From contig OZ242194.1 of assembly GCA_965206165.1 (NCBI GenBank), positions 3,513,881-3,577,880 on the forward strand: a stretch of 64,000 nt of DNA. Direction: 5' to 3'. Below the pieces are notes generated by a model that made no database searches, was not told the DNA's origin, and was given only the letters and a program-made list of their open reading frames with translations. Shown here one piece after another: positions 8,857 through 64,000 of the stretch; positions within the stretch are counted from its first letter, which is position 1; the number at the start of each line of letters is the position of its first letter. This DNA comes from Acidimicrobiales bacterium (lineage in GTDB: Bacteria > Actinomycetota > Acidimicrobiia > Acidimicrobiales > CATQHL01). Both the position numbers and the translations under genes were made by a program.

Positions 8857-9654
8857 GTGCGGAATCCGGGCGACTTCTTGTTGGAGAATCTCGGCGGTGG
8901 CGTCTGGGGCCACGACGCCGACGAAAGCTGGTGGGGCTTCAACGGCCTGTTCGGCGGCTACCTCGTCAGCCTGGCCGCGCTGGCGTGTGAGGCGACCGTG
9001 GCCGACCCCGACCGCCCGCTGCGCAGCATCACCATGCAGTTCCTGCGGCCCGCGCCCGCCGGGCGCCTGCTTATCGAGGTCACGACCGAGCGGGCAGGGC
9101 GCTCCGTCTGGTTCCTCTCGGGACGGATCACGGCGGAGGGAAAGCTCTGCGCCCTGTTCCTGGTCGTCGCCGCGACCGATCAGGACGGCCAGGAATTCAC
9201 GAACCGGACGATGCCCGAAGTCCCCGCGTTCGAGGAGAGCAGCGACAACGCCGCTCCTCGCATCTTCGCCCTCCCGGTGTTCGACCACTTCGAGGAGCGG
9301 GAGATCCACCGCGACGGTTCCAGCGTGCTCGTCTGGGTCCGCCCGAACTACCCAACGGAGATCGACCTGTCGCTGGTTCTCATGGCTTGCGACGTGATCC
9401 CACCGGTTGCCATCGGTCGCGTGAGCGATCCCCACTTGGCCGGGACCATCACGCTCACCGCGAACCTCCGCTCACCGCTGCCGGTGCCCGCGAGCGCCGG
9501 TGCGCCGGTGCTGGTGGAGTTGCACACTTCGTCATCGACCGGAGGCCACGTGGACGAGACGGCCCTCGCCTGGTCCCCGGACGGGCAACTCCTCGCAGAG
9601 AGCCACCAGGTCCGCTTCCTGCGCCGAGCCCAAGAGGGATTCATCGGCCACTGA
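8857..9654 (+). CDS. acyl-CoA thioesterase-like (double hot-dog, TesB-like) protein
   Basis: 3' part of ORF 8476..9654. GFNGLFGGYLVSLAALACEA...ITMQFLRPAPAG...VWVRP...LVLMACDVIPP resembles thioesterase-like superfamily proteins. Start set at in-frame GTG 8857, because the upstream ORF part is Arg/Pro-rich. The start is uncertain. Confidence 0.6.
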   Translation: MRNPGDFLLENLGGGVWGHDADESWWGFNGLFGGYLVSLAALACEATVADPDRPLRSITMQFLRPAPAGRLLIEVTTERAGRSVWFLSGRITAEGKLCALFLVVAATDQDGQEFTNRTMPEVPAFEESSDNAAPRIFALPVFDHFEEREIHRDGSSVLVWVRPNYPTEIDLSLVLMACDVIPPVAIGRVSDPHLAGTITLTANLRSPLPVPASAGAPVLVELHTSSSTGGHVDETALAWSPDGQLLAESHQVRFLRRAQEGFIGH

Positions 9655-10285
9655 GAATGCGCAGCACGAGATCCTCGATGCTCGTCTCGACGGCGAGCCC
9701 ATCGCGCTCCCGGAGCCACTCGAGATTGCGGCGATGCACGATGTCCTCGGACCGATACCGGTTGAGGAACACGGTGAGACTCGAGGTCCCGAGCACGCCG
9801 GCCCCAAGACGGGTGGCATCGATCGCCCCGAGCCCGGCGTCGGCCACGAGCAGCACCCGGTCGGCGACGAGTGCGCCGATGAGATCGCTACTGTCGCCAT
9901 CATCGGCAAGTGGTGACCGCACGCCGCCAACCGTCTCGACGAATCCGAAGTCCGGTGCGGGCGATGGCCATTGGAGTTCATCCAGCAGTTCCGCCAGCTT
10001 GGGAGGCACCTGGCCGAGCAGGGAGGCCGCGATCGGCGGCGCCATCGCCTCGGGGTACCACCGGTGCGCCGGGCACACCGCCTGCGGATGCTCGCCGGTC
10101 GCCGCAGCGAGTACCTCGGCGTCGGTCGCGCCGATGTCGTCGGGCGTGTAGGACTGCACCGGCTTGCGCGCGCCAACCGCCAGACCCCGGCCACGGAGAC
10201 TCCCGAGGACCCCGGCGGTGAGCCAGGTCTTGCCAACACCGGTGGCCGTGCCGGCGACGGCGACGAGCACCGAGGGCCGGGTCAT
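9641..10285 (-). CDS. bioD: dethiobiotin synthetase
   Basis: Lower part of ORF 9641..10831. MTRPSVLVAVAGTATGVGKTWLTAG contains the P-loop. ATGA overlap with the bioF stop. Last gene of the bio array. Confidence 0.9.
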   Translation of the reverse strand: MTRPSVLVAVAGTATGVGKTWLTAGVLGSLRGRGLAVGARKPVQSYTPDDIGATDAEVLAAATGEHPQAVCPAHRWYPEAMAPPIAASLLGQVPPKLAELLDELQWPSPAPDFGFVETVGGVRSPLADDGDSSDLIGALVADRVLLVADAGLGAIDATRLGAGVLGTSSLTVFLNRYRSEDIVHRRNLEWLRERDGLAVETSIEDLVLRILSGR

Positions 10286-11430
10286 CTGCAAACCCCGATC
10301 CGCTCCAGGGCTCCGATCAGACGGTCGACCATGTCGTCGGTGTGGGCGGCCGACAGGGCGACGCGGAGTCGCGAGGTGCCCGCCGGCACGGTCGGAGGAC
10401 GGATGGCCGGTACGAGGAAGCCCTCGTCGAGGAGAGACTCGGCCACACGAACGGCGCGAGCCTCCGAACCCACGATGATCGGCACGATCGGGGACGGATG
10501 ACCGGGACGCAGGCGGTCGGTGAGTCGCCGAAGACGAGCGATGAGCGAGGCTCCTTCGGGGTTCCGCGAGATGCGGATGGCCTCGAGCGCGGCAGCGGCG
10601 TCGGCAGGAGCCAGTCCAGTGGAGAAGATGAATGGTCGGGCCCGGTTCACGAGGAGATCGACAAGGGGACCCGGACCGCACACCGCCCCGCCGAGCGAAC
10701 CCAGGGCCTTCGAGAGGGTGACGACGCGGAGCATCCGGAGCCGCTCGAGCTCCGCGAGTGCGCTGAGCGACGGACCGAACACCGAGTGCGCCTCGTCGAT
10801 CACCAGCAGGGCGCCGCGGCGCGCGCAGCACTCACCGAGCGCGACGACATCGGCCTCGTCGCCGTCCATCGAGAAGACCGCGTCGGTGACAACCATCGTT
10901 CTCGGCGCCTCGGCTCCGCCGAGCAGCTGGTCGACGTGACCGACGTCGTTGTGCCGCGCGATCGCGATCGGCGACCGGCTGAGGCGGCAGCCGTCGATGA
11001 TCGAAGCATGGTTCAACTCGTCGCTGACGACGAGGCAGTCGGGGCCGCCGAGGGTGGCGAGCACGCCGAGGTTCGCGGCATACCCCGTGGGGAAGACCAG
11101 GGCTCGCGCCGTCTTCTTCCAGTCGGCCAGTTCGACCTCCAGATCGGCGTGGACGGGGCGGGACCCGACGACGAGCCGGCTCGCCGTGGCACCGGTCCCC
11201 CAACGATCCAGCGCGGCGTGGGCCGCGCCGATCACGTCGGGGTGACACGAGAGTCCGAGGTAGTCGTTGGACGCAAAGGAGATCACCTCCCGGCCCGCGA
11301 GATGTCCCACTGGTCCCCTGGCGTCGAACGTCCGCACGTCTCGCCACTGGTCGGCGGCGCGGATCGTGCCGAGTTGCTCGCCGGCCCAGGCTTCGAAGTC
11401 CCGGTGCGCCGGGGTGGCCGACCCCGTCAT
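10282..11430 (-). CDS. bioF: 8-amino-7-oxononanoate synthase
   Basis: ORF 10282..11541, start at ATG 11430 (ATGA overlap with the bioA stop). SNDYLGL motif. PLP-lysine context VVTLSKALGSLGG. Confidence 0.9.
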   Translation of the reverse strand: MTGSATPAHRDFEAWAGEQLGTIRAADQWRDVRTFDARGPVGHLAGREVISFASNDYLGLSCHPDVIGAAHAALDRWGTGATASRLVVGSRPVHADLEVELADWKKTARALVFPTGYAANLGVLATLGGPDCLVVSDELNHASIIDGCRLSRSPIAIARHNDVGHVDQLLGGAEAPRTMVVTDAVFSMDGDEADVVALGECCARRGALLVIDEAHSVFGPSLSALAELERLRMLRVVTLSKALGSLGGAVCGPGPLVDLLVNRARPFIFSTGLAPADAAAALEAIRISRNPEGASLIARLRRLTDRLRPGHPSPIVPIIVGSEARAVRVAESLLDEGFLVPAIRPPTVPAGTSRLRVALSAAHTDDMVDRLIGALERIGVCR

Positions 11431-12776
11431 GAGAGAGCCTCGGCCGCATCGACCATGGCGCCGGTGATGCGGCGCAGATCTTCGGCGGTGCTGATGTAGG
11501 GCGGCATCGTGTAGAGAAGCCGCCCGAAGGGGCGCAGCCACACTCCCCGGTCGAGGAGAAGCTCCTGTGTCGCGGCGGCGGGCACCGGGTCAACCGTCTC
11601 GATCACGCCGATGGCCCCGAGCACCCGCACGTCGGCCACACCCGCCAGCGTGGCGGCCGGCGCCAGTCCTGTCTCGAGGGCTTCTGCAATCGAGGCCACC
11701 TCGCCGGCCCAGGGCCTCGACAGAAGCAGCCGGACAGAAGCCAGGGAGACGGCGGCCGCCAGGGGATTGCCCATGAAGGTGGGTCCGTGCATGAGCGCCC
11801 CGGACTCCGCGGCGCTGACCCCCGCGGCCACTTCTGCGGTGCACAGCGTCGCCGCCATGGACAGGTAGCCGCCGGTGAGTGCCTTGCCGACGCACATTAT
11901 GTCGGGGCGGATCCCGGCGTGGTCGCAGCCGAACAACCTGCCCGATCTGGCGAAGCCGGTGGCGATCTCGTCGGCGATGAGCAGCGTGCCGTGCTCGTCG
12001 CAGAGTCGTCGGACCTCCCGGAGATACTCCGGGGAGTAGAAGCGCATCCCGCCGGCGCCCTGAACGACCGGCTCGAGAATGACGGCGGCGATCTCGTCAC
12101 AGTGGTCAGCGAGCAGCCCGGCGAACCCGGCGATGTGGTTGGCACCGAAGGGTTGGCCGAAGCGAGGCTCGGGAGCCGGGGCGAACAGTTGGGGAGGAAG
12201 GACGCCGGCGAACATCGAGTGCATCCCGGTCACCGGGTCGCAGACCGACATGGCCCCCAACGTGTCGCCGTAGTAGCCCGAGGCGACGGTGAGCAGGCGC
12301 GTCCGCTCGGGCCGGCCGGTGCCGCGTGCGTACTGCAGTGCCATCTTGATGGCGACCTCCACGGACACCGAGCCGGAGTCGGCGAAGAAGACGTGCTCGA
12401 GCCCGGCCGGAACGATCTCGACGAGCAACTCGGCGAGTTCGACCGCGGCGGGGTGCGTGATGCCGCCGAACATGACGTGGGCGACCGCCTCCAGCTGTTT
12501 GCGAATGGCCTCATCGAGAACCGGGTGGCGATGCCCGTGGATGGCAGCCCACCACGACGACATACCGTCGATGGCCTGCCGCCCGTCGGCCAGGTGGAGC
12601 GTGGTGCCTTCGGCGGCCACGACGGGGACCGCCGGAGAGACCGACGGCATCGGGGCGTAGGGGTGCCAGACCCGTTTCCGATCGCGCGCAACCAGATCAA
12701 GGTGCTTCCGGTGCTGAACCTCGCCCGGATCGACGGTGCGGGCAGCACCCTTGGCTACCGCATCGCCGGTGGTCAT
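11427..12776 (-). CDS. bioA: adenosylmethionine-8-amino-7-oxononanoate aminotransferase
   Basis: ORF 11427..12941, start at ATG 12776. Class-III aminotransferase motifs SSWWAAIHGHRHP, DEIATGFARSGRLFG, CVGKALTGGY. Confidence 0.9.
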   Translation of the reverse strand: MTTGDAVAKGAARTVDPGEVQHRKHLDLVARDRKRVWHPYAPMPSVSPAVPVVAAEGTTLHLADGRQAIDGMSSWWAAIHGHRHPVLDEAIRKQLEAVAHVMFGGITHPAAVELAELLVEIVPAGLEHVFFADSGSVSVEVAIKMALQYARGTGRPERTRLLTVASGYYGDTLGAMSVCDPVTGMHSMFAGVLPPQLFAPAPEPRFGQPFGANHIAGFAGLLADHCDEIAAVILEPVVQGAGGMRFYSPEYLREVRRLCDEHGTLLIADEIATGFARSGRLFGCDHAGIRPDIMCVGKALTGGYLSMAATLCTAEVAAGVSAAESGALMHGPTFMGNPLAAAVSLASVRLLLSRPWAGEVASIAEALETGLAPAATLAGVADVRVLGAIGVIETVDPVPAAATQELLLDRGVWLRPFGRLLYTMPPYISTAEDLRRITGAMVDAAEALS

Positions 12777-20544: not shown

Positions 20545-22038
20545 CTATGCCGCGTCGGCACTCTCGACATAGGCGGAGACCCACTCGTAGTCGTGGGCGT
20601 CGCCGCCGCCGTCGCTGAGCACGCCGATGCCCATGTACTGGAGCACGCCGCCGAGGTCGGGCGGCTGGATCTCGCCGGCGAGCAGGCGATCAACGATCGT
20701 CTTGTGGGCGGCGTAGCGCTCCGGGTCCTGCTCGAAGATCCAGCGATCGGGCTCCGAGCCGAAGTGGTAGAGCCGCCCGTTGTACTCCAGCGGGTAGTCC
20801 TGGGTCGTCTTGAACGGCGTCCCGACGATCGGGATGTTCGACATGTTGCAGATCATCGGCAACGTGCCGGGAACGGTCCTGGCGATATCGCCCCGCTTGA
20901 GGTTCTCGATGATGACGTCCCAGCACTTGCCGAAGGTGTCGTTCCACCCCGGGTACTTCTCCTCGAGCCAGTCGCGCTCGTCGGGGCCCACACCGGCCGC
21001 CGGCGAGAACCACAGGGTGGGCCGCCACGACCACGTGCCGAGTTGCTGACCGTGGTGATGCTCGTCGATGTCGGCCAGGAACATGTCCCAGTACCAGGGC
21101 TTCGCCAAGCCCAGGTCCTCCAGGCTGTTGACGAACTGCGTGACGATCCACTCTTGCATGAACTCCTTGAACGATCCCTCCCGTTTGTCCAGGGGGATGT
21201 AGTAGTCCATCGGGATGCCCGTCAGGATCGTGAACAACTTCCACGACCGCCAGAACGCCACGTCGACGAGGCGCTGAGCCCGCTCCTTCTCGCCGTTCTC
21301 GATCAGCATCGACAGAATCGGTGTGCCGATCTGGGCGTGGCGGGCCTCGTCGGACTGGATGCTCTGGATCAGCTTGGAGAAGCTGAAGTCCCCGGCGTTG
21401 GCCGCATCCGACGAAAGGCCGATGAACTGCAGGTTGGTGAACCCGGTCTCGAACGCGAAGTTCAACAGGATGGATGTCGAGATCGCGTCGCGGGTCATCA
21501 TCATGTCGTCGAAGAAGTGACGGCCCGCGATGATGCCCCAGTTGTTGGACTTCATGCCCGAATGGGCCCAGTCGAACTGGCGATCCGTCGGTACGTACTC
21601 GTGGGGGAAGAACAACTGGAGTTGCGCGTGGCGGATCTCGTCGAGCATCCCGAACGTGCCCATGTTCCGCATGCCCGGGGACCGGGACCAACGCACGAAC
21701 CGCGACTCCATGAGGGCGGCGTTGTACTCGACGACCGATACCGCGCCGTAGTGGAGTTTCAAGGTGCTGATCCACCCTGGATCCACCTTGGAGCGCAGGT
21801 CCATGCGTTCCAGCGCCGCCTTGACCGAGTAGGCCCCGGCGTCCTTCTGGCGCTGGATGTCGACGTACTCCCGGTAGCTGATCTTGTACGGCTCGTCGTA
21901 GGTGGACCACACCTCGTCGGGAATGTCGTAGTCGCCGCTGTGCCCGGAGGGATACAACTCGTCCTCAGTGACATAGCCGGGTGTCCACTCCGTGCGCCGC
22001 GCGATGTCGTACCACTCGCTCCGCTCGAGCAAAGCCAT
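20545..22038 (-). CDS. soluble diiron monooxygenase hydroxylase alpha subunit (TmoA-like)
   Basis: ORF track 497 aa. Both diiron ligand motifs are present (FGMLDEIRHAQLQ and SIQSDEARHAQIG). N-terminus SEWYDIARRTEWTPGYVTEDELYP. AAGGAGA RBS upstream. Confidence 0.93.
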   Translation of the reverse strand: MALLERSEWYDIARRTEWTPGYVTEDELYPSGHSGDYDIPDEVWSTYDEPYKISYREYVDIQRQKDAGAYSVKAALERMDLRSKVDPGWISTLKLHYGAVSVVEYNAALMESRFVRWSRSPGMRNMGTFGMLDEIRHAQLQLFFPHEYVPTDRQFDWAHSGMKSNNWGIIAGRHFFDDMMMTRDAISTSILLNFAFETGFTNLQFIGLSSDAANAGDFSFSKLIQSIQSDEARHAQIGTPILSMLIENGEKERAQRLVDVAFWRSWKLFTILTGIPMDYYIPLDKREGSFKEFMQEWIVTQFVNSLEDLGLAKPWYWDMFLADIDEHHHGQQLGTWSWRPTLWFSPAAGVGPDERDWLEEKYPGWNDTFGKCWDVIIENLKRGDIARTVPGTLPMICNMSNIPIVGTPFKTTQDYPLEYNGRLYHFGSEPDRWIFEQDPERYAAHKTIVDRLLAGEIQPPDLGGVLQYMGIGVLSDGGGDAHDYEWVSAYVESADAA

Positions 22039-27949: not shown

Positions 27950-28089
27950 CGGTCCACCTCGATCGGATCTGTTCGCCATCCGGTCGGCTCCGGCCGGACC
28001 GGAACAGCCTACGCCTCGCGCCGCGGTGCCGGCCCGATCAGGACCATCGGCAGGGAGACGATCCGGCTGCCGGGTGCGGCGGGACCGCA

Positions 28090-28125
28090 GCCAGTCGTAA
28101 TACAATTAGTGATACTATTCGGGTC
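28090..28125 (+). promoter_or_regulatory. AT-rich promoter region of the TA operon, probably giving a leaderless transcript
   Basis: gtaatacaattagtgatactattcgggtcATG. The -10-like TACTAT at 28113-28118 ends 7 nt before the antitoxin ATG (28126), and no SD is present. No good -35 hexamer. Confidence 0.4.
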
Positions 28126-28365
28126 ATGGGTCACGCGATTTCGGTCCGGCTGGATGAGACGGCGCACCTCGCCCTGCTGCGCCTCGAATCCACCGGGATG
28201 ACTCGCTCCGAAGCGGTCCGCAGTTCTGTGGTGGCAGCGGCAGCACGCCTGACGGAATTCCAGGCCCTCGCGGCGGAAGCGGCGGCGCTCGAAGACGACG
28301 AGGAGGACCTCCGGGAGATGCGGGCAGTGGCGGAAATGATGGAGGAAGTACGTGCGCCGTGGTGA
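28126..28365 (+). CDS. ribbon-helix-helix antitoxin of type II TA pair
   Basis: ORF track 79 aa. MGHAISVRLDETAHLALLRLESTGMTRSEAVRSSV is an RHH fold pattern, followed by an acidic C-terminal tail. Overlaps the toxin gene by 14 nt. Confidence 0.8.
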   Translation: MGHAISVRLDETAHLALLRLESTGMTRSEAVRSSVVAAAARLTEFQALAAEAAALEDDEEDLREMRAVAEMMEEVRAPW

Positions 28366-28669
28366 GGTCCGCCCACTCCGTCTGCCCAAGGGCACGGACC
28401 ACGAACAGCGGGGCCGGCGATACGGCGTCGTCGTGCAGGCCGATGCACTGCTATGCCGCTCAACGGTGCTCGTGGCACCGACCTCGCGCCGCGCCAGGCC
28501 CGCCACGTTCCGCCCGGAGATCGCTGTCGAGGGCATGTCCACGCGAGTGCTCGTCGAGCAAATGGGGGCCGTCGACATGAGCCGCCTCGGAGAACCGATC
28601 GCCCAACTCACCGCCACGGAGCAGTGGGCCATCGACACGGCGTTGCTCACGGTACTGGATCTCACCTGA
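28352..28669 (+). CDS. mazF: MazF/PemK-family endoribonuclease toxin
   Basis: ORF track 105 aa. RRGEVRPLRLPKGTDHEQRGRRYGVVVQAD...VLVAPTS...VLVEQMGAVDMSRL is the typical PemK/MazF layout. Confidence 0.8.
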   Translation: MRRGEVRPLRLPKGTDHEQRGRRYGVVVQADALLCRSTVLVAPTSRRARPATFRPEIAVEGMSTRVLVEQMGAVDMSRLGEPIAQLTATEQWAIDTALLTVLDLT

Positions 28670-28822
28670 CGCACACCACGGGCGGCGCGGCGGCGAGCGG
28701 CGCCACGACATCCCAGCAATCGACGGTTCCATCGCCGCTATCGCACACGCAGACCGTCAATCATGGGGTTTCGGCCCCGGACTGGATGACGCTACACCTG
28801 TCGGTGGCAAACGCTGAGCGTT

Positions 28823-28856
28823 CCCAAGCCGGCATTTGAGCAGCAACCGGCTTGGG
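28823..28856. terminator. 10-bp perfect hairpin between convergent mazF and RCC1-like genes
   Basis: cccaagccgg-catttgagcagcaa-ccggcttggg, with exactly complementary stems. No U-tract on either side, so it would be a factor-independent terminator of the non-canonical kind, if it is one at all. Confidence 0.4.
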
Positions 28857-28937
28857 AGCGCCGCGGGTGTCGCACGGCTCCCGCCGATGACCCGACCGCC
28901 GCAGATCCCACGGCACCCCGTCGTGCGCGTCGCCCTG

Positions 28938-31397
28938 TCAATCGTCAACATTGCCCCAACATGCGATGGTGCCGTCGGTGCGTAGCCCGCACGAATGCGA
29001 CTCTCCGGCGCTGGTGGCGCTGAACTCGCCCGTCGGCGCGTCTGTCTGTCCGTCGTCGTTCGTGCCCCAGCAGGTGATGGTGTTGTCGGTGCGCAACCCG
29101 CACGAGTGACTCCCGCCGGCGGTGACGGCACCGAACTCGCCTGGCGGCGCGTCTGCCTGTCCGTCGTCGTTCGTGCCCCAGCAGGTGATGGTGTTGTCGG
29201 TGCGCAGCCCACACGAATGCGACGCGCCGGGGGCGACGGCACGGAACGCCGCGAACGGCGCTTCAGCCTTCCTGGCGTTGTTCGCGCCCCAGCAGGTGAT
29301 GACGGTGCGGTCGACGTGCAGCCCACAAGAACGATTCCAACCGACGGCGACAGCGCTGAACTGACCGGCGGGCGCGTCGGTTTGGTGGTGGGAGTTGTCG
29401 CCCCAGCAGGTAATGGTGTCGTCGGTGCGCAGCCCACACGAAGACTCGCTGCCGGCAGCAACAGCGCTGAACTCACCGTCAGGCACGTCGAGTTGCCCGT
29501 ATTGGTTATCGCCCCAACATTCGACGGTGCGGTCGGTGCGCAGCCCGCAGGCATGTCGCACACCGGCGCTGATGGCACTGAACTCCCCAGGAGGCGCCTT
29601 GACCCGCCCGAAGTCGTTGTCGCCCCAGCATGCGATGGTTCTGTCGGTACGCAACCCGCACGAATAGTGGCTGCCGGCAGTGACGGCGTCGAACCGCCCG
29701 CTCGGTGTGGCCGTGGCGCCGATTTTCGTGCTCGAAGCGGTAAGTGGTGCCCATTGGATGCCTTTCGGCGCGGCGATGGGTTGACTCCAGCATTCGATGG
29801 TGTTGTCGACGCTGACGCCGCAGGTGTGCGCCCCGCCGGCGGAGACCGCGCTGAACCGCCCCTTCGGCGCCTCGGCCTGCCCATAGTCGTTGCGGCCCCA
29901 GCATTCGACGGTGCCCTTGGTGCGTAGCCCGCACGAATGCAACGCGCCGGAGGTGATGGCGCTGAACCGCCCCTTCGGCGCCTCGGCCTGCCCGTCGTCG
30001 TTGCGGCCCCAGCATTCGACGGTGCCGTCGGTGCGCAGCCCGCACGAATGCAACGCGCCGGAGGTGATGGCGCTGAACCGCCCCTTCGGCACCTCGGCCT
30101 GCCCACCGTCGTCGTCACCGCTCCAGCATTCGACGGCACCGTCAACGCGCAACGCGCAGAGATGCACTCCGCCGGCGGCGAGAGCGCTGAACGGTCCCTC
30201 AAATTCGTCGTCGCTCCCCCACCCCCAACACGTAATGGAGCCCTCGACACGCAGTCCGCAAGAGAGCAGCCAACTGCCGATCGACACGGCGCTGAACCGT
30301 CCCTCCGGCGTGCCGCTCAACGTGATGCCGTCGAAGTTCCAGCAGGCGACGGCGCCGTCGACGCGTAGCCCACACGAATGCCTAACACCCGCCGACACCG
30401 CCGTGAACTCACCCTCCGGCACGCCGACCTGGACCGCCTCACCGTGCACCCAACACTTCACCATGCCGTCGACGCGTAGCCCACACGAATGCACAGCACC
30501 CGCCGACAGCGCTCTGAACTGACCCTCCGGCGCGCCAACCCGGCCCGCCTCACTGTTTCCCCAACACACCACCGCGCCGTCGACGCTCAACCCGCACGAA
30601 TACAAGACACCCGCCGACACCGCCGTGAACTCACCCTCTGGAGCGCCGGCCTGACCCTCCTCGTTATTCCCCCAACACAGCACCGTGGCGTCGACGCGCA
30701 CACCACACGAATGCGCACCCCCAGCCGACACCGCCGTGAACTCACCCTCCGGAGCGACGACCTGACCCCCCTCGTTGTTTCCCCAACACAGCACCGTGGC
30801 GTCGACGCGCACACCACACGAATGCGCACCCCCAGCCGACACCGCCGTGAACTCACCCTCCGGAGCGACGACCTGACCCCCCTCGTTTGCTCCCCAACAC
30901 ACCACCGCACCGTCGGTGCGCACACCACACGAATGCGAACCTCCGGCCGACACCGTGCTGAACCGCCCGTCCGGCGCGGCGGACTGTCCATAGTCATGGC
31001 TGCCCCAACACGCCACCGTGCCGTCGACGCGCAACCCACACGAATGCGCACCCCCAGCCGACACCGCAGTGAACTCACCATTCGGAGCGACGACCTGCCC
31101 GAACTCGTTGCTGCCCCAGCAGGCGATAGTGCCCTCGGCGCGCTGCCCACACGAATGGGCGTGTCCGGCAGAGACGGAGCTGAACGCACCCTCCAGAGAG
31201 TCGCTCTGTCCAAACTCGTTGTTTCCCCAACACGCCACCGTGGCGTCGACGCGCACACCACACGAGTGCTGAAAGTTCGCGGAGACGGCGCTGAACCGGC
31301 CCTCCGGCCCGTCGCCCTCCTCGCTGGTCGTGCCGCACCCGACCGCAGCCGCGACCAGCACGATCAGCAATACAACCCTCACGGCCCGCGTGACCAT
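28938..31397 (-). CDS. lipoprotein composed of ~22 tandem RCC1-like (beta-propeller blade) repeats
   Basis: ORF 28938..31406. Probable start is ATG 31397 (GGAGGG 11 nt upstream) or GTG 31406. Signal peptide plus lipobox MVTRAVRVVLLIVLVAAAVGC. The rest is 37-aa units of consensus GEFxAVSAGGxHSCGLRxDGTxxCWGxNxxGQxxAPx. Confidence 0.85.
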   Translation of the reverse strand: MVTRAVRVVLLIVLVAAAVGCGTTSEEGDGPEGRFSAVSANFQHSCGVRVDATVACWGNNEFGQSDSLEGAFSSVSAGHAHSCGQRAEGTIACWGSNEFGQVVAPNGEFTAVSAGGAHSCGLRVDGTVACWGSHDYGQSAAPDGRFSTVSAGGSHSCGVRTDGAVVCWGANEGGQVVAPEGEFTAVSAGGAHSCGVRVDATVLCWGNNEGGQVVAPEGEFTAVSAGGAHSCGVRVDATVLCWGNNEEGQAGAPEGEFTAVSAGVLYSCGLSVDGAVVCWGNSEAGRVGAPEGQFRALSAGAVHSCGLRVDGMVKCWVHGEAVQVGVPEGEFTAVSAGVRHSCGLRVDGAVACWNFDGITLSGTPEGRFSAVSIGSWLLSCGLRVEGSITCWGWGSDDEFEGPFSALAAGGVHLCALRVDGAVECWSGDDDGGQAEVPKGRFSAITSGALHSCGLRTDGTVECWGRNDDGQAEAPKGRFSAITSGALHSCGLRTKGTVECWGRNDYGQAEAPKGRFSAVSAGGAHTCGVSVDNTIECWSQPIAAPKGIQWAPLTASSTKIGATATPSGRFDAVTAGSHYSCGLRTDRTIACWGDNDFGRVKAPPGEFSAISAGVRHACGLRTDRTVECWGDNQYGQLDVPDGEFSAVAAGSESSCGLRTDDTITCWGDNSHHQTDAPAGQFSAVAVGWNRSCGLHVDRTVITCWGANNARKAEAPFAAFRAVAPGASHSCGLRTDNTITCWGTNDDGQADAPPGEFGAVTAGGSHSCGLRTDNTITCWGTNDDGQTDAPTGEFSATSAGESHSCGLRTDGTIACWGNVDD
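28950..31290. repeat. tandem 111-bp coding repeat array inside the RCC1-like gene
   Basis: Period 111 nt read directly. 30661-30771 vs 30772-30882 differ at 2 positions by my reading. 29886-29996 vs 29997-30107 differ at about 6. The blocks starting at 29050 and 29161 are also near-identical. Array limits are approximate. Confidence 0.9.
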
Positions 31398-31815
31398 CCA
31401 CCCCACCGCCCTCCGGTCCGTACACGATGCGGCAACACAACCCGGACCTTGTCCTCCGCGGACTTCGACGGCCGATGGCCCATCAACAGGCTCCTTCAGA
31501 TCAGAACCAAACCATGACCTGTCTCAGAATTCTTGTCGCGCGACAACACAACAGAACCCGCCGCCAGACTCGGACAGCGCAATCCCGACACGCGGCGACA
31601 TCGACCACCCGATGCGCCCACAACACACGCCACCCATCAACCCGACCTCCCGACACCAACAACCAACCGAACATCCAGAAGATTAGTTCTTACAAAACTA
31701 CTGATCAAATGACAATACATATACAGAAATCTAGAAAACTAGACGAACACGTACAAGGCTCCGGCGACCGTGGACTCGTCAGCTTGGACTCTGGCGATGC
31801 CCGCCGAGCCCGGCG
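31398..31815 (-). other. atypical 0.4-kb leader/intergenic region: G-poor on + strand, with an AT-rich core at 31680-31745
   Basis: Direct reading shows long runs such as cccacaacacacgccacccatcaacccgacctcccgacaccaacaaccaaccgaac. Next comes gattagttcttacaaaactactgatcaaatgacaatacatatacagaaatctagaaaactag. This is unlike any other intergenic region in the window. Confidence 0.7.
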
Positions 31816-33219
31816 TCACGACGAACGCTCGACGGCCGCTTGAACCTCAGCGAGGCGGCGTGTGCACTCCTCGGCGCTGGCGGCCTCCAGGTTGAGGCGC
31901 AGCAGCGGCTCGGTGTTGGAGGGGCGCAGGTTGAACCACCAGTCGCCGCAGTCGACCGCCAATCCGTCAAGGCGGTCCAGCGGATGGTGGCGGTAGCGCT
32001 GCGCCAGGGCCTCGGTGACCGCCCGGGGGTCGTCGACGGTGAAGTTCACCTCGCCGGAGGCGGCGTAACGGTCGTACGGGCGGCGCAGTTCGCTCAAGGG
32101 CACCCCGGCGCGGGACAGCTCCTCGAGCAGGGCCACCGCGGCGAGTACGCCCGAATCGGAGCAGTGATTCTCGGCGAAGTAGTAGTGCCCGGAGTGCTCG
32201 CCGGCGAACGCCGCTCCAGTCTCGGCCATCTGCTGCTTGATGAGCGTGTGCCCGACCCGGGTGCGCAGGCCGCGGCCGCCGCACTCGGCGATCACCTCCG
32301 GGACCATCCGCGAGCACGCCGCGTTGTACAGCACGAGCGCGCCGGGGTTGCGACGCAGCACCGCCCGCGCCAGCAGAGCCGCCACCACCGAACCCGACAG
32401 CGGGCGCGCCAGGTCGTCCACGAAGAAGACCCGATCGGCGTCCCCGTCGAACGCCAACCCCACATCGGCGCCGACCTCCCGTACGCGCCCGCACAGATCG
32501 GCCAGATTGGCCTCCTGCAGCGGATCGGGAGGATGGTTCGGGAAGCTGCCGTCCAGCTCGCCGTACAGCACATCGAGGACCGGCGGCAGCCCCTCGAAGA
32601 CGGCCGGTACGACAAGGCCGCCCATGCCGTTGGCCACGTCGGCGACCACCGACAGCGGCGCCATGCGCTCGGCATCCACGAACGACCGGACGTGACGGGC
32701 GAAGGTCTCCAGCAGGTCCACCCTGCGACGCCGCCCAGACTGCTCTGCGGCCGCCTGCAGCGAGAGCCTGAGCGCCAGATCTCGCACCCGCTGCAACCCG
32801 CGCTCGCCGCTGAGAGGGCGAGCGCCCGCGCGGCACGCCTTGATGCCGTTGTAGTCCGCGGGATTGTGCGAGGCGGTGAACACCACGCCGGGCGCGCCGA
32901 GATGGCCCGAGGCGAAGTACAGCATGTCGGTCGACGTCAGACCCAGATCCACGACATCCAGTCCCGCGGCCTGCAGGCTCGCGCAGAACCCATCGACCAG
33001 CGCCGGCCCCGACAGCCGCATGTCGCGCCCGACGATCACCTCGGTGGTGAGTGGATCGTCCTCGCGGAAGAACGCGGCGAAGGCCGCTCCAAGTCGCTGT
33101 GCCATCGGGGTGTCGAGTTCGGCGGGAACCCGGCCGCGAATGTCGTTGGCACGGATGATCACGTCGAGGCGGGCCTCCAGGGCCGGCGCGCCGCCGTGGC
33201 CGCCCGCGCGCTCAGTCAT
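31816..33219 (-). CDS. manB: phosphomannomutase/phosphoglucomutase
   Basis: ORF 31816..33303, start probably ATG 33219 (8-nt overlap with the upstream stop). Active-site loop VVFTASHNPADYNG and metal loop LAFDGDADRVFFVD. Confidence 0.92.
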   Translation of the reverse strand: MTERAGGHGGAPALEARLDVIIRANDIRGRVPAELDTPMAQRLGAAFAAFFREDDPLTTEVIVGRDMRLSGPALVDGFCASLQAAGLDVVDLGLTSTDMLYFASGHLGAPGVVFTASHNPADYNGIKACRAGARPLSGERGLQRVRDLALRLSLQAAAEQSGRRRRVDLLETFARHVRSFVDAERMAPLSVVADVANGMGGLVVPAVFEGLPPVLDVLYGELDGSFPNHPPDPLQEANLADLCGRVREVGADVGLAFDGDADRVFFVDDLARPLSGSVVAALLARAVLRRNPGALVLYNAACSRMVPEVIAECGGRGLRTRVGHTLIKQQMAETGAAFAGEHSGHYYFAENHCSDSGVLAAVALLEELSRAGVPLSELRRPYDRYAASGEVNFTVDDPRAVTEALAQRYRHHPLDRLDGLAVDCGDWWFNLRPSNTEPLLRLNLEAASAEECTRRLAEVQAAVERSS

Positions 33220-44005: not shown

Positions 44006-47000
44006 TCAGGGCTCCTCGCGCTCGTGCGACAGCAGGGCAACGACCAGATCCTCGGCAGATTCGGGCGTGACGTCCGCGGGGGCCTCCACCGGGCGGCGTC
44101 GAAGGCTCGCCAGCGGGATGGCGACCAGGACGAGAGCCCAAAGAACGATGCGGGTCACGTTCGAAGCGGACGGTTCATGGCGCAACTCCCCTGCCCCACC
44201 GGCCTCGATCCGGAATCCCTGCGCCCAGCCGAGCGCCGGGGTGGGTTCGATCTTCGTGCCGTCCACACGGAGCACCCAACCGTCGGCCGCGTCTGCCAGG
44301 TAGAGCGTCGAGTCGCCCGGCAGCAGCCCTCTCGAGGTCGTCGGGCGGTCGAATTCGGGCAGCGCCAGGCTCGTCGAGGCGGCGATTCTCGCCGGTGTCA
44401 CCTCTCCGCCGCCAGCCAGGAGCGTCCGCGTTGGGCGCCACGCGATGTTCCGGTACACGGCCACGCCTCCGCGGGACTCCTGCCGCTCGAGGTCGAACTG
44501 CGCCCCGAGACGCCGGTGCACCAAGTCGGGCACCGGCTCGACGAGGTCGCCGAACGGCTCAGGAGCTATCCGTTCCATGACGACCAGGTAGCGCACGCCG
44601 AGGGGAGCCAGACGCTCGCCCATCCTGTCCGTCTGCCCGGACATCGCATCCTGCCAGGCTGCCGTCAATCCGGTTGACGCCGGAGGCGGCCCTCCCGGCC
44701 ACCGCAGTTCCACGTTCGGTGGCACCGAGGTGGAGGTGGCGAGGACGAGCCGGTCGGCCACCTCCCAGCCGCCGAGCGGGAGCACGTCGGGATGGCCCAC
44801 CCACAGGATCCGGAAGGCGCCCAGCCGGGACTCTTCCTCCACGACCGCCAGTGGTGTCCTGAAATCTCCCCGGGGCATGCCCCAACGTCCGTCGAGGGTC
44901 AGCGCCAGCACGGGAATGCTGCCGCCCAGCAGCGCAACCAGCCCGACGGTGGCCAGCATCCGCCGCCGCAGGGGCTTTGCGGTACCTCTCTCGGAGATGC
45001 CGGCGGCCCCGAGAGCGATGGCGAGCGCGACGCCGAACGCTGCCGGCGCCAGCAGGACCTCCGGGCGCGGCAGATCCCAGCGGCTCCAACCCTGCTCGGA
45101 AGCGAGCGCCGCCAGCACCGACATCAACACGAGGCTCCACGCCCGCACCGTCCAGACGAACCAGCCACCGCGAGTGACGACCAGCGCCAACCCTGCCGCA
45201 ACCAGGAAGCCCCAGATCAAGCGTCCTCCAGCCGCCGAACCCGTGGCGAAGCGCAGCAACTCCGCGACGCTCAGATCACCCCCGACGTCGGGTCGCGCTC
45301 CGCCGCGGCCGAAGAGTTCGTCCAGCGACGTTGGCACGGCCGGCCAGTTGAGGAGCCAGCCCACCAGGAGTCCCCCGATCGTTGCGCCCGCCAGCGCCAC
45401 GAGCCGTCGAGCCGACCCCGCGAGCAGGCCTCCGACGGCCAGCGCCACAGCGAGCATGACCACCATCACGGGAGCCACGGGCACGAACGCCCCCAGCAGA
45501 GCCACCAGCACCCCCACCATCACCGTGGGAAGCCAGAACCTGCCTGATCGAACCGTCTTCGAGGCCGACGGCGGCCCCACCACCCTCGCCAACCACAGAC
45601 AGATCCACGGCAGGGTGCCGTAGAGCGCGAGGGCGCTCCAGACCCCGTTGGCGAGGGCGTTGTAGGGCAAGGGCATCGCAACGAAAGCCACCAGGCCCAC
45701 GATCTGGACGCGGCGGCTGGTCGGCGCCAGCAGGCGCCAGAGCCCTGCCGCCCCGAAGGGCACGAGGCCCAGCAGCAGGACGGTCCGAGTCAGTCCCATC
45801 TGCCCCGCCAGCACCGACCCGGCCACGCCGAGAAACCCGTAGGCGGTCGGGGCCGGACCAGCCGAGCCGAGCCCAGCCTCCCGCCAGTTGCTGAACCAGG
45901 AGCGGAACAACTCTGCCGGCGAGTCCCCCAGCAGTGCGATCTCGCCAAACACCGGCACGCCGCGGGTCAGCAGATGGCGGCTCCCGAAGATGAAGATCAC
46001 CATGACGACTACCCAGCCGACCGCCGCGGACTGCATCGAGGTGTTGCGCACGGCGTCCATGAGGCGTCGGCGTCGACCCCAGAGCGCGCCGGTTCCCTCG
46101 ACCGACGCATCGCCTCGCACCAGGCGGTCCACGAAGCGCGCCACCGAGACGTACCCGCGACGCGTCAACCGGCTGACGCGGGCGTCGTCGGGGGAGTCGC
46201 CGACCAGTCGGCGCCTGCTCAGGATCTCCGCCAGCCCGAGGAGGTTCCACCACCAGGCTCCCAGGAGCGCCGTGGCGCGCCGGAAGTGCCCGGCGAGCAC
46301 GGCAAGGGCCGCCTCCAGCACCGTCAGCCCCAGCATCAGCGGCACTTCGGCCGGTAGCCGTGAACGGCTGCCGCAGACCAGAACCGACCGGAGTTGGTGG
46401 CGGTAGGCGAGGAACTCGCGGTCACGGCGCAACCGGCGCTCCGCGAGGCGCCCTCGATGGCGCACGCTCGCTCCGGGTACCACCAGTACCCTCCCCCCGT
46501 CCAGGTTGACCCGGCGGCAGATATCCAGATCCTCGCCGTGGTACGTCATGGCGCCATCGAAGCCGCCGAGCCGGTCGAAGACCTCGGCGCGGATCAGCAT
46601 GCAGGCGCTGGGGACGGCGAGCACCTCGGTCACCGCGTCGTGCTGGCCCTGGTCGTACTCGCCGGCGGTGACGAGCGGCACCGGCACACCCATCCGGTCC
46701 GACGACAGGCCGACGCATTGCAGGAAGCGGGGGTCGTCCCACTCCACGAGCTTGGGACCCACCACCGCGGCTCGGTGTCTCACCGCCTCGTCCACCAGGC
46801 GAGTCACCACGTCAGGAGCCAGAACCACGTCGTCGTGACAGATCAGCAGGAATGCTGGGGCGTTCGCGCCGGACGGCTCGTCATCGGTGATCGACTCGGG
46901 GCTCGCCGCCGCTCCGGTCACCGTGACCGCACCCGCGGCTCGTTCGTGGACCTTTTCGACCTCCCGGTCGCCCCCGAAGATCAGGCGGGCGGCCGCGTTG

Positions 47001-61445: not shown

Positions 61446-62104
61446 GCCCCGTCGTCCAGCCGCAGGTCGGCCTCAACGTCGAGGCGGATGTCCACCTCGC
61501 GGCCCACCAGCAGCACCTCGGGCATGCCAGGTGCGTGCACGTCCAGGAATGCTGCCACGCCGAAATCATCGCGCCGCAGACTGCCTGTGGCTTCGAAGGA
61601 CATCTTCGCCAGCGGCATGGACGGGTGGCGCACAGCACCCAGGAAGCGCACGGCCAGCAGCAAAGGGAGCGTCACGTCGCGGACCGTGAGCGCGCCCGGC
61701 AGGTCCCAATTGTCGTAACCCGCAGCGTGAACAGCGTCACTGACGAATGTCAGGGCCGGATAGCGCTCGACGTCGAGGAACTTCGGACCGCGAAGATGCT
61801 CGTCCGCCTTGGGATGTGCTGTATCGATGCTCGCTGCGGCGATCCTTACCTCCGTCCGCGAAGCCGCCGGATCCTCCGCGATGGTGATCGTGCCCGATAC
61901 TTCGCGGAAGCGGCCGCGCATGGCCGTCAGCAGGTGTCGAGCGGCGAAAGCAACCGAGGTGTGCAGCCCATCGATCACCCATTCTCCAACAGCGGGCACG
62001 GTACGCCCATCGACGATCCGCGTGTAGCCGGCGTCCATGCGGGCGATGCTAGTGAGCGGAGCGCGCCCGCTGCCGAGGCGCACCGATCCAGCCACCCGCA
62101 CCAT
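61442..62104 (-). CDS. YceI-family protein
   Basis: ORF 61442..62272, start probably ATG 62104 (GGAGTGAG upstream). WVIDGLHTSVAFAARH...HLRGPKFLDVERYPALTF...LTVRDVTLPL. Confidence 0.78.
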   Translation of the reverse strand: MVRVAGSVRLGSGRAPLTSIARMDAGYTRIVDGRTVPAVGEWVIDGLHTSVAFAARHLLTAMRGRFREVSGTITIAEDPAASRTEVRIAAASIDTAHPKADEHLRGPKFLDVERYPALTFVSDAVHAAGYDNWDLPGALTVRDVTLPLLLAVRFLGAVRHPSMPLAKMSFEATGSLRRDDFGVAAFLDVHAPGMPEVLLVGREVDIRLDVEADLRLDDGA

Positions 62105-62183
62105 TGGGGGCTCACTCCGGCCGCACCGCCGCCTCGCGGCAACTCTCCGATCAAGAGCGTGGCCCGCATCGGGATGCACCGCC

Positions 62184-62229
62184 TTGACAGCAGAACACGC
62201 CCGGATAATACTGACTGAATGGACAGTCA
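62184..62229 (+). promoter_or_regulatory. promoter-like element plus perfect inverted repeat upstream of the LLM oxidoreductase gene
   Basis: Perfect TTGACA at 62184-62189. An A/T-rich -10 candidate lies within ggataatact (62203-62212), with AATACT at 17-nt spacing. The inverted repeat TGACTG-N6-CAGTCA at 62212-62229 overlaps the -10/start region. Confidence 0.4.
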
Positions 62230-62370
62230 ACCGCTTCGCAGATGGGATCCTCCCGGCCAAGCGCGCCGACATTCGTACCTCGCGCAGGTCGCCTGACTCG
62301 GACAGGCGATTCCCTCACTAAGAACGTCACCGGAACGAGGTGACTTACCCAGCACCACGAAGGACGGACG

Positions 62371-63561: not shown

Positions 63562-63598
63562 CCGACACCGAGCAATAGCCAGAACACTGGAGGCAACA

Positions 63599-64000
63599 AT
63601 GCCAGACGCGAGCGGTCCACGGGTCATCGAAGGCTACGAAGAATATGACGACGGCGATTGGATAATCGAGCGCCACGAGGGCGTACTGCACGTTACGCTC
63701 CACCGTCCACACGCCCTGAACGCGACAACGTATCGCAGCCATACGAAGCTAACAGCCTTGTGGCCAAAGGTACAGGCCGACCCACTGACCAGGGTGGTGC
63801 TCGTCACTGGATCAGGTAGGGCCTTCTGCTCAGGAGCCGACCTAAAGGAAGCACGCGAGCGGACTCTCTCCCATCGGGAGATGCTCGACCTCATGCGAGA
63901 GGGCGGCGCTATGGTCATGGGCATGGTCAACATTGACAAGCCAATAGTATCGGCAATCAACGGGCCCGCGGTGGGGTCAGGTGCGGCACTCGCCCTTCTC
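63599..64000 (+). CDS. enoyl-CoA hydratase/isomerase (crotonase) family protein, truncated by window end
   Basis: Own translation from ATG 63599 (GGAGG at 63589-63593): MPDASGPRVIEGYEEYDDGDWIIERHEGVLHVTLHRPHALNA...VVLVTGSGRAFCSGADLKE...INGPAVGSGAALALL. It is open to the window end, so it is not in the ORF track. Confidence 0.85.
   Translation, partial: MPDASGPRVIEGYEEYDDGDWIIERHEGVLHVTLHRPHALNATTYRSHTKLTALWPKVQADPLTRVVLVTGSGRAFCSGADLKEARERTLSHREMLDLMREGGAMVMGMVNIDKPIVSAINGPAVGSGAALALL

Follow-up and report, generated by a model that had tools for sequence, protein, structure and literature searches.

The locus and its lipoprotein gene

We analysed a window of 64,000 nt of DNA from an Acidimicrobiales bacterium, to which all nucleotide coordinates refer. 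The locus comprises a minus-strand gene for a repeat protein of the RCC1_2 family and a putative toxin-antitoxin pair, both lying in a segment that is inserted between the genes for phosphomannomutase (PMM) and Trm112.

28031..31843, no strand assigned: inserted segment of ~3.8 kb at the conserved PMM-Trm112 junction, from blastn against related genomes
28126..28365, plus strand: candidate antitoxin gene, 79 aa, from ORF position; overlaps the toxin start by 14 nt
28352..28669, plus strand: PemK/MazF-family toxin gene, convergent with the lipoprotein gene, from Pfam and PHROG
28938..31397, minus strand: coding sequence of the RCC1_2-repeat lipoprotein, 819 aa from the ATG at 31397, stop codon included, from the ORF list and Pfam
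31335..31397, minus strand: putative signal peptide with lipobox (MVTRAVRVVLLIVLVAAAVG/C), from a lipoprotein pattern match
31398..31843, minus strand: non-coding leader 5' of the lipoprotein gene, from the sequence

The gene end at 31397, which was given in an earlier note made from the sequence alone, proved to be the in-frame ATG of the minus-strand ORF. A longer form of this ORF (28938..31406, minus strand, 822 aa) begins at an alternative GTG at 31406. The sequence GGAGGG at 31409-31414 lies upstream of both codons, at 11 nt from the ATG but just 2 nt from the GTG, which favours the ATG as the start. Amino acid positions of the repeat units are nevertheless given in the 822-aa (GTG) numbering.

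The earlier note had also recognized a lipoprotein signal, and a pattern search agreed that the N-terminus, MVTRAVRVVLLIVLVAAAVGC, fits the lipobox pattern. The matching stretch, MGWMVTRAVRVVLLIVLVAAAVGC, has the charged n-region, hydrophobic core and lipobox Cys of a lipoprotein i.e., two Arg in the n-region and a 12-residue hydrophobic core, followed by A-V-G-C, with Ala rather than Leu at lipobox position -3 and the codon of the putatively lipidated Cys at 31335-31337. The call comes from a pattern for Gram-positive lipoproteins rather than from a trained predictor. These features suggest that the protein may be lipidated, and it is probably a membrane-tethered surface protein. The lipobox, together with the occurrence of SLH, S8 peptidase, FN3, PKD and cadherin-like domains in homologues, argues for an extracytoplasmic location.

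The leader contains an AT-richer stretch at ~31670-31750 and presumably holds the promoter of the lipoprotein gene. A promoter scan found no sigma-70-like consensus in it, a search of the whole window against Rfam at gathering thresholds found no family in it, and terminator-like sites were at chance level. No convincing ORF was found in the leader. A peptide at 31379-31486 (minus strand) resembling the N-terminus of IS3/IS481 transposases was dropped, as neither Pfam nor NCBIfam matched it, even at E<=10; it was also unlike the transposase ORFs that adjoin a homologue.

The gene occupies a variable insertion slot

By blastn, homology to four related genomes (L001, L002, L003 and L015) ended at 31844 and resumed at 28030 (28026 for L015). 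In the closest relative, L001, the slot is empty, with 54 bp in its place and flanking genes of 91-96% amino acid identity, and it is likewise empty in about eight further relatives. Other genomes carry different cargo there, namely a type IIG R-M gene (L007, L008 and L010), IS elements plus a one-propeller RCC1_2 gene (L004), or a one-propeller RCC1_2 gene (L005). Since the slot is empty or otherwise filled in relatives, and since the GC3 of the lipoprotein gene (0.79) is lower than that of its core neighbours (0.87-0.92), the gene is accessory; it is genuine but unremarkable as an accessory gene of this Acidimicrobiales bacterium. We detected neither a target-site duplication nor a terminal inverted repeat at the island ends, and no integrase within the island. 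A scan of the whole window yielded no tRNA, so that the island has no tRNA anchor.

The toxin gene was assigned by PF02452 (E=1.4e-14, 54.6 bits vs 23.1), with further matches to CcdB (PF01845, 3.2e-07) and to a MazF-like family in PHROG (1.5e-12). For the 79-aa ORF, no antitoxin family scored above threshold, the best indication being a weak RelB/DinJ match (E=0.029, below the cut-off); the gene arrangement suggests that it may be the antitoxin of the PemK/MazF pair. None of the three proteins (lipoprotein, toxin and antitoxin candidate) was matched by PADLOC, which places the lipoprotein gene outside catalogued defence systems.

The protein consists of 21 repeat units with a predicted fold of three propellers

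Parsing anchored on the CW motif divided the array into 21 units of 37 aa at a spacing of 111 nt, a period that was independently reported by TRF, with minor insertions or deletions in units 9-11 and 17-18. A count of 21 was also obtained with an HMM of the regular units. The unit length proposed in the earlier note stands, whereas its count of ~22 has to be lowered to 21. Unit 21 and the protein end 5 aa past the last CWG.

Pfam membership was defined as a score above the curated gathering threshold. The RCC1/RCC1_2 profile search that had been suggested as a check gave a score far above this limit for RCC1_2 (PF13540: 415 bits vs a cut-off of 22, 20 stretches, E=3.7e-128), and the RCC1-like domain WD40_RLD (PF25390: 212.7 bits vs 150, five stretches, E=1.3e-62) also exceeded its own. 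No further Pfam domain was found in the lipoprotein, the mature part of which would consist of propellers only.

The AlphaFold2 model (mean pLDDT 88.8) contains 63 strands by DSSP, which correspond to 21 three-stranded blades. Low confidence is limited to aa 1-32, 285-290 and 543-562 and to the last three residues, with pLDDT <50 at residues 1-32 and 543-562. As the breaks in the model fall only after units 7 and 14, the mature lipoprotein is predicted to fold into three seven-bladed beta-propellers, in line with the multi-propeller protein that had been envisaged previously; with a pTM of 0.56, the arrangement of the propellers relative to one another is undefined.

30528..31304, minus strand: predicted propeller 1, units 1-7 (aa 35-293), from unit coordinates and 21 strands in seven triplets
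29754..30527, minus strand: predicted propeller 2, units 8-14 (aa 294-551), from unit coordinates and the AlphaFold2 model
29703..29753, minus strand: 17-aa non-repeat linker (aa 552-568) between propellers 2 and 3, from the gap in unit spacing after unit 14
28941..29702, minus strand: predicted propeller 3, units 15-21 (aa 569-822), from unit coordinates and the AlphaFold2 model

The most degenerate units of propeller 2 are 10, 11 and 14. The top Foldseek matches of the model were BLIP-II (1JTD) and ACR4/CR4 (7A0J/7A0K), each spanning approximately one seven-blade ring; alignments to the seven-bladed BLIP-II, ACR4 and UVR8 covered about 265-285 columns i.e., one ring.

Both Cys residues, in the CGx and CWG motifs, are present in all 21 units. 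Across the 1,860 units of 121 proteins, they are kept in 1,857 and 1,858, respectively, above every other position. A test of correlated loss was uninformative, because the Cys are practically never lost. By homology to ACR4, in which each blade has one conserved disulfide (bioRxiv 10.1101/2020.08.10.245050), the two invariant Cys probably form one disulfide per blade.

Blade numbers in the family are quantised

The family is very large, with >6,700 matches, and many of its members carry SLH, peptidase, FN3 or PKD domains; the lipobox pattern was matched by only 7 of the best 120 homologues. Among these best 120 of >6,700, contiguous blade arrays peak at 7, 14 and 21, with 14 blades in 80/120 and 21 in 9/120, and few are found at 13, 15, 20 or 22. 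The exact number of 21 units in the lipoprotein, the boundaries after units 7 and 14 and the quantised counts in the family together indicate that blade number is held at multiples of seven. The earlier suggestion of a freely variable repeat number is thus not supported, since the gene has 3x7 units and its homologues cluster at 14 and 21.

No orthologue of >62% identity was found in a search of 5.8 billion proteins, the best match having 62% identity over 31% of the query, and a metagenome scan recovered only related proteins of 23-55% identity, the best of them at 37-55%. Neither the lipoprotein nor the neighbouring PMM had a match in look-ups of exact sequences. The genomic contexts of three homologues (P0011, P0007 and P0081) contained no recurrent partner gene. 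Within the window, CWG motifs at 45498-46335 were considered as a possible paralogue; they belong to an unrelated 1,102-aa membrane/glycosyltransferase-like ORF.

Neighbouring units have probably recombined locally

Three adjacent pairs of units stand out at the DNA level.

30661..30882, minus strand: tandem pair 1 (units 5/6), two 111-nt copies with 2 differences
29886..30107, minus strand: tandem pair 2 (units 12/13), two 111-nt copies with 6 differences
29020..29219, minus strand: third, older similar adjacent pair (units 19/20), 89-nt tract with 7 mismatches

The near-identities reported for the first two pairs were exact: 30661-30771 and 30772-30882 differ at 2 positions, and 29886-29996 and 29997-30107 at 6. 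Pair 1 contains a 107-nt exact run at offset 111 (CDS 520-626 = 631-737), and the similarity tract of pair 2 reaches 29834-30114. Units 19/20 are 83-85% identical. The median identity over all 210 unit pairs is 61%, and the three most similar pairs all consist of adjacent units. Third codon positions differ at only 3 of 37 sites in each of the pairs 5/6 and 12/13, whereas regular units are on average 56% identical at these positions. As third positions are also nearly identical, the near-identity reflects recent common descent and not protein-level constraint; together with the 107-nt exact run in neighbours, this bears out the recent duplication or gene conversion proposed earlier.

Unit identity decreases with distance in the array (0.69 at distance 1, 0.58 at 7 and 0.57 at 14; r=-0.26, permutation p=0.006), which points to local recombination by duplication or conversion. 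There is no identity peak at a unit distance of 7 or 14, and duplication of a whole propeller was ruled out, with 34% identity at offset 777 vs a background of 29%. The mechanism may have been single-period duplication offset by loss, or gene conversion. The tract of pair 1 is approximately one period long (107-111 nt), as plain single-unit duplication predicts. If this is what happened, a recent ancestor must have had a number of blades not divisible by seven, which speaks against a number held in sevens.

A more speculative reading, to which we give little credence, is that the blades serve as exchangeable cassettes, with recombination between neighbours overwriting single blades while selection holds the total at 21. 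If this were true, surface variation in propellers would arise by intragenic conversion rather than by change in copy number, and such a protein could quickly renew its binding or recognition surface, for example under host or phage pressure.

A probable tethered binding platform, and alternatives

Building on the repeat anatomy, the family assignment, the insertion boundaries and the quantised blade numbers, we consider it likely that this is an accessory gene, in a variable slot, for a lipid-anchored extracytoplasmic protein of three propellers, with a quantised array that undergoes local recombination. The protein would be exported by Sec and then lipidated at the lipobox Cys; the propellers would thus sit on the outside of the cytoplasmic membrane, joined to their anchor by a short acidic linker. 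In this position, they may act as a non-enzymatic platform that binds a protein or glycan ligand via the loop-rich propeller faces; the function as a surface binding module is putative. Recombination between neighbouring 111-nt units would have left three neighbour pairs similar or near-identical, while selection would preserve a number of blades divisible by seven. The gene may have arrived, or may survive, in the variable PMM-Trm112 slot beside the putative PemK/MazF toxin-antitoxin pair.

One alternative, which we regard as unlikely, is that the protein is an 'eukaryotic-like' repeat protein of a sponge or other invertebrate symbiont that functions in recognition by the host or its evasion. 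Judging by isolate names such as SB0668_bin_6, APA_bin_18, COS4_bin_33 and IRC4_bin_37, several of the closest genomes may derive from sponges, and one homologue is annotated as Candidatus Poriferisocius. The gene is also accessory, in a slot that elsewhere holds defence genes. Eukaryotic-like repeat proteins and defence systems are reportedly enriched in sponge-associated Acidimicrobiia (PMC11706023), which would suit this reading; however, RCC1-type repeats are outside the repeat classes analysed in that study. Moreover, members of the family abound in many free-living soil, freshwater and mat bacteria.

It is somewhat less plausible still that the gene encodes a contingency-type surface protein, the reading of the earlier note, in which frequent slippage or unequal recombination between near-identical units varies the unit number among cells or strains and thereby alters an adhesin or phage-receptor surface. 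Recombination would find good substrates in the 107-nt exact direct repeat and in the pair with 6 differences, the slot is variable and contains a putative toxin-antitoxin module here and a restriction system in relatives, and the same repeat occurs in some phage tail proteins. Against this, a change by one unit would break a propeller, blade numbers in the family are sharply quantised, with exactly 3x7 in this gene, and only 3 of 20 junctions are highly similar, the others being about 60-70% identical. The slot RCC1_2 genes of L004 and L005 have about 6-7 units vs 21 here, as variation in unit number might predict, but at 31-34% identity they are not alleles of the lipoprotein gene.

Equally doubtful is the idea of a tethered inhibitor resembling BLIP-II, the propellers of which would block an enzyme that is secreted or on the periplasmic side (beta-lactamase, penicillin-binding protein or another hydrolase). 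Foldseek ranked BLIP-II first (chain B of 1JTD, a complex with TEM-1; E=1.8e-18, TM 0.77 over 267 columns, 26% identity). Like the lipoprotein, BLIP-II is an exported protein from Actinomycetota (Streptomyces exfoliatus; 1JTD, 3QHY, 3QI0); both have seven-bladed propellers with three-stranded blades of ~40 aa, as judged from the model of the lipoprotein. BLIP-II, however, was not detected by a sequence search of solved structures at E<=1e-3, has neither the paired cysteines nor the conserved blade disulfides (bioRxiv 10.1101/2020.08.10.245050), and is a single soluble propeller with no lipid anchor, whereas the lipoprotein is predicted to have three in tandem. In addition, no beta-lactamase or penicillin-binding protein gene adjoins the lipoprotein gene.

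Finally, an assembly artefact, in which the near-identical units would stem from collapse or expansion of the repeat and misrepresent the true gene, as the earlier note had cautioned, is very improbable. Tandem repeats with a 107-nt exact run can mislead short-read assemblers, but this run is shorter than usual read lengths, and the copies of the two closest pairs remain distinguishable by 2 and 6 differences and by their flanks. The ORF is unbroken across 2.46 kb, and exactly 21 units, with predicted boundaries after units 7 and 14, fits a multiple of seven, where collapse or expansion would most likely yield 20 or 22.

Relationship to known propeller proteins

The closest solved relative by sequence is the CRINKLY4/ACR4 ectodomain (7A0J, 7A0K; E=1.6e-26), with both Cys motifs aligned and a Foldseek TM of 0.72-0.78 to 7A0J. 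Its repeat of ~39 aa, the crinkly repeat motif (described in PMC4617170), has the same CG[LV] and CWG cysteine motifs as the lipoprotein and forms an extracellular seven-bladed propeller. In ACR4, an N-terminal strand fills the propeller pore, and the one propeller is followed by a TNFR-like cysteine-rich domain, a transmembrane helix and a kinase; the lipoprotein has none of these domains and instead carries three predicted propellers and a putative lipid anchor.

Canonical RCC1 (1A12), UVR8 (4D9S) and RPGR (4JHN) belong to the same Pfam clan, share the seven-fold propeller, the G-x-N-x-x-GQ motif and the hydrophobic-strand motifs with the lipoprotein, and were lower-ranked fold and sequence matches. 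The RCC1-type assignment of the earlier note is therefore right as to the clan (PF13540, PF25390) but not as to the canonical blade type: canonical blades have 51-68 aa, four antiparallel strands and no conserved Cys, in cytoplasmic or nuclear proteins, whereas those of the lipoprotein have 37 aa, three strands (by DSSP on the model) and two invariant Cys, in a protein that is probably extracytoplasmic. They are thus of the short BLIP-II and CRINKLY4 type.

The same repeat, at 40-55% identity, is found in bacterial multi-domain RCC1_2 surface proteins ('alpha-tubulin suppressor-like RCC1 family protein'), which typically have arrays of 14 or 21 blades and are abundant in Acidimicrobiales, often as several paralogues per genome. 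Most of these homologues attach via SLH or other domains, whereas the lipoprotein would attach via its lipobox and consists of propellers only. A very large family of bacterial surface propellers thus gains a three-ring form that has propellers only and is probably lipid-anchored; beyond annotation, the gene adds little. The counting of blades in sevens provides a simple internal check of assembly and limits how far repeat 'turnover' can be read into propeller genes. The two-cysteine motif, called unique to the CRINKLY4 family in its structural paper, is common to these bacterial repeats and the plant CRINKLY4 ectodomain. The PMM-Trm112 junction is, in turn, a recurrent insertion slot in this Acidimicrobiales lineage, which receives a putative toxin-antitoxin pair, restriction genes, IS elements or RCC1_2 genes in different genomes.

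An accessory gene for a putative lipoprotein between PMM and Trm112

The RCC1_2-repeat lipoprotein gene has as neighbours the genes for adenosylhomocysteinase, an SIS-domain isomerase, Trm112, phosphomannomutase (PMM), a glycosyltransferase and a large membrane protein, the order of which is kept in related Acidimicrobiales genomes. In the closest relative (L001), with 91-96% amino-acid identity on the neighbour genes, Trm112 comes 54 bp after PMM. Nucleotide homology to L001 and to three further loci (L002, L003, L015) stops at 31844 and restarts at 28030 (28026 for L015), and 28031-31843 is therefore an insertion of ~3.8 kb, which holds the following features:

28126-28365, plus strand: candidate antitoxin of 79 aa, overlapping the toxin gene start and matching no profile above threshold
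28352-28669, plus strand: PemK/MazF toxin gene (PF02452, E=1.4e-14)
28938-31406, minus strand: lipoprotein gene, one long ORF (822 aa counted from GTG), convergent with the toxin gene
Within 28031-31843: leader of 446 nt

The 79-aa ORF resembles antitoxins of the ribbon-helix-helix class. Neither end of the insertion carried a target-site duplication, an inverted repeat, an integrase gene or a tRNA gene. One edge falls within the last ~9 codons of PMM (tail at 31816-31843, minus strand), which explains why its C-terminus reads …AEVQAAVERSS in the window and …AEVREAIGELTS in L001.

The same slot was empty in ~9 relatives. Elsewhere it was filled by a type IIG restriction-methylase of ~1,050 aa (L007, L008, L010), a one-propeller RCC1_2 gene (L005), ~1.1 kb of unassigned sequence (L013), or IS transposases with an apparently frameshifted one-propeller RCC1_2 lipoprotein gene and a toxin gene remnant (L004; 84 nt, 85.7% identical, 11400-11483, adjoining Trm112). 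The L004 lipoprotein gene (9531-10960) occupies two overlapping frames, 9531-10085 and 9854-10960, either because it is a pseudogene or through a frameshift error in that assembly. Given this occupancy and the lower GC3 of the lipoprotein gene (0.79 vs 0.87-0.92 in core neighbours), the junction is a recurrent variable slot in the Acidimicrobiales lineage compared (loci L001-L016, L045), and the lipoprotein gene is accessory.

Position 31397, the upper limit of the gene in the earlier note, is an in-frame ATG. The spacing of a GGAGGG motif at 31409-31414, which is 11 nt upstream of this ATG but just 2 nt upstream of the alternative GTG, favours the ATG as the start. In the N-terminus, MVTRAVRVVLLIVLVAAAVGC, two arginines are followed by a hydrophobic core and an A-V-G-C lipobox; this matches a Gram-positive lipoprotein pattern, in agreement with the signal proposed from the sequence. 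A reading frame overlapping the gene start (31379-31486, minus strand; MGHRPSKSAEDKVRVVL…) resembles an IS3/IS481-type transposase N-terminus; this identity was rejected, having no profile support even at E<=10.

Three predicted seven-bladed propellers

Units were delimited by anchoring on the CW dipeptide, which gave 21 units with a period of 37 aa (111 nt), numbered from the N-terminus, small indels near units 9-11 and 17-18, and a non-repeat linker of 17 aa after unit 14. An HMM trained on the regular units likewise recovered 21 copies, correcting the previous estimate of ~22; TRF returned the 111-nt period, and Pfam marked 20 RCC1_2 stretches. The RCC1-type assignment was borne out by profile search, as the protein scored 415 bits against RCC1_2 (cut-off 22) and 212.7 bits against the RCC1-like domain model (cut-off 150). 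An NCBIfam search of the lipoprotein returned nothing specific.

An AlphaFold2 model built from an alignment of 35 sequences had a mean pLDDT of 88.8, and DSSP assigned it 63 strands, i.e., 21 triplets, one per unit. Confidence was low only at residues 1-32 (signal peptide and linker), 285-290 (the end of unit 7), 543-562 (around the linker that follows unit 14) and the last three residues. The strand triplets, together with the confidence breaks after units 7 and 14, indicate that the predicted protein comprises three propellers of seven blades each, as the suggestion of a multi-propeller protein had anticipated; with a pTM of 0.56, the model leaves their mutual arrangement undefined.

Foldseek against the PDB ranked first the beta-lactamase inhibitor BLIP-II of Streptomyces (1JTD_B, E=1.8e-18, TM 0.77, 267 columns), followed by the ectodomains of the plant receptor kinase CRINKLY4 (7A0J, TM 0.72-0.78, and 7A0K), then by UVR8, RPGR and RCC1. 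By sequence, the closest solved structure was ACR4 (E=1.6e-26), with aligned CGx and CWG motifs. The blades are therefore predicted to be of the short three-stranded type found in BLIP-II and in "crinkly repeats". Thus, the RCC1-like description stands at the level of the clan but not of the blade, since canonical RCC1 blades have 51-68 aa and four strands, as opposed to 37 aa and three strands here.

Each ACR4 blade relies on a single conserved disulfide for its stability (bioRxiv 10.1101/2020.08.10.245050). In the lipoprotein, 21/21 units contain both cysteines, and these are the most conserved repeat positions across 121 proteins (1,857 and 1,858 of 1,860 units), making one disulfide per blade a natural inference by analogy. 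The two-cysteine CGx/CWG motif is common to the large bacterial RCC1_2 family and the plant "crinkly repeats", of which that family is the nearest relative in the set of sequences compared (E=1.6e-26). According to the CR4 structure paper, blade disulfides are unique to CRINKLY4 (bioRxiv 10.1101/2020.08.10.245050), and in the CR4 phylogeny paper bacteria go unmentioned (PMC4617170); the bacterial tie of this "plant-unique" ectodomain may be under-appreciated.

Local exchange among neighbouring units

As the earlier note had reported, 30661-30771 and 30772-30882 differ at 2 positions, sharing an uninterrupted 107-nt match at offset 111, and 29886-29996 and 29997-30107 differ at 6. The median identity over all 210 unit pairs was 61%; the three highest identities belonged to pairs 5/6, 12/13 and 19/20, all of them adjacent. 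In pairs 5/6 and 12/13, only 3/37 third-codon positions differed, against a regular-unit mean identity of 56% at these positions, so that their near-identity reflects recent shared DNA ancestry rather than protein constraint.

Unit identity fell from 0.69 at distance 1 to 0.63 at 3-4, 0.58 at 7 and 0.57 at 14 (r=-0.26, permutation p=0.006), and the gene gave no signal at an offset of 777 nt, i.e., a whole propeller. This speaks against duplication of whole propellers and indicates an array shaped by local exchange among neighbouring units. The similarity tract of the first pair spans almost exactly one period, as a single-unit tandem duplication would yield, and that of the second ~1.5 periods. 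The recent duplication or gene conversion originally envisaged is supported by the adjacent pairs and their third-codon near-identity, and the route may be either duplication with compensating loss or gene conversion.

Coding-strand composition differs between units 1-9 (30306-31406; G 0.44, C 0.24) and the rest (28938-30305; G 0.35, C 0.33), which accounts for a GC-skew dip at 30001-32000 and suggests two blocks of units homogenised separately.

Family size and blade number

A homology search with the lipoprotein returned >6,700 proteins at E<=1e-10 among the matches listed, the best of these being 40-55% identical; the gene is hence a further member of a known, very large family, sitting in an accessory slot. 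One genome can supply several paralogues, and the fold is also present in phage and giant-virus proteins annotated RCC1. Many homologues bear SLH, S8 peptidase, FN3, PKD or cadherin-like domains, consistent with a role at the extracytoplasmic surface. No recurrent partner gene was found in the homologue neighbourhoods examined. One SLH and RCC1_2 homologue (P0081) is flanked by several transposase genes (rve, Transposase_mut, IS481-type) and a serpin gene (L142, 285-1666 and 7035-9028), a hint of family members travelling with mobile DNA.

Among the best 120 homologues, 80 had 14 units and nine had 21, with few at neighbouring values, and contiguous arrays peaked at 7, 14 and 21. Taken with the exact 3x7 of the lipoprotein and its predicted propeller boundaries, these peaks show a blade number kept at multiples of seven. 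This weakens the proposal of freely varying copy number under ongoing turnover, which is not supported. The exact 3x7 also speaks against the suspected mis-assembly, as collapse or expansion would in all likelihood have produced 20 or 22 units.

Proposed function

We propose that the lipoprotein is exported and then lipid-anchored, so that three rigid propellers, probably disulfide-stapled, would form a non-enzymatic binding platform tethered to the cell surface. By analogy with BLIP-II, whose short-blade propeller type it shares, it may, less probably, be a tethered enzyme inhibitor, but it is not a demonstrable functional homologue. It shares this propeller type with CRINKLY4 as well, but has neither the cysteine-rich domain nor the kinase of that receptor and is not one. 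The binding platform may, likewise less probably, be a repeat protein with which a sponge symbiont interacts with its host, given that the isolate names of related MAGs look sponge-derived. Acidimicrobiia living with sponges are reported to be rich in repeat proteins and defence systems, although the study concerned does not cover RCC1-type repeats (PMC11706023). A contingency locus of variable unit number may be considered, but sits poorly with blade numbers kept at multiples of seven.

Other observations in the window

The 497-aa ORF at 20545-22038 (minus strand), which resembles the large subunit of a soluble di-iron monooxygenase (methane/phenol/propane hydroxylase type), lies within a stretch of slightly lower GC (0.62). 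At the window end (62001-64000), GC content drops from ~0.70 to 0.55-0.62. The ORF at 62371-63561 (plus strand), which resembles a luciferase-like flavin monooxygenase, is unusually AT-rich for the genome and may for this reason be foreign DNA.
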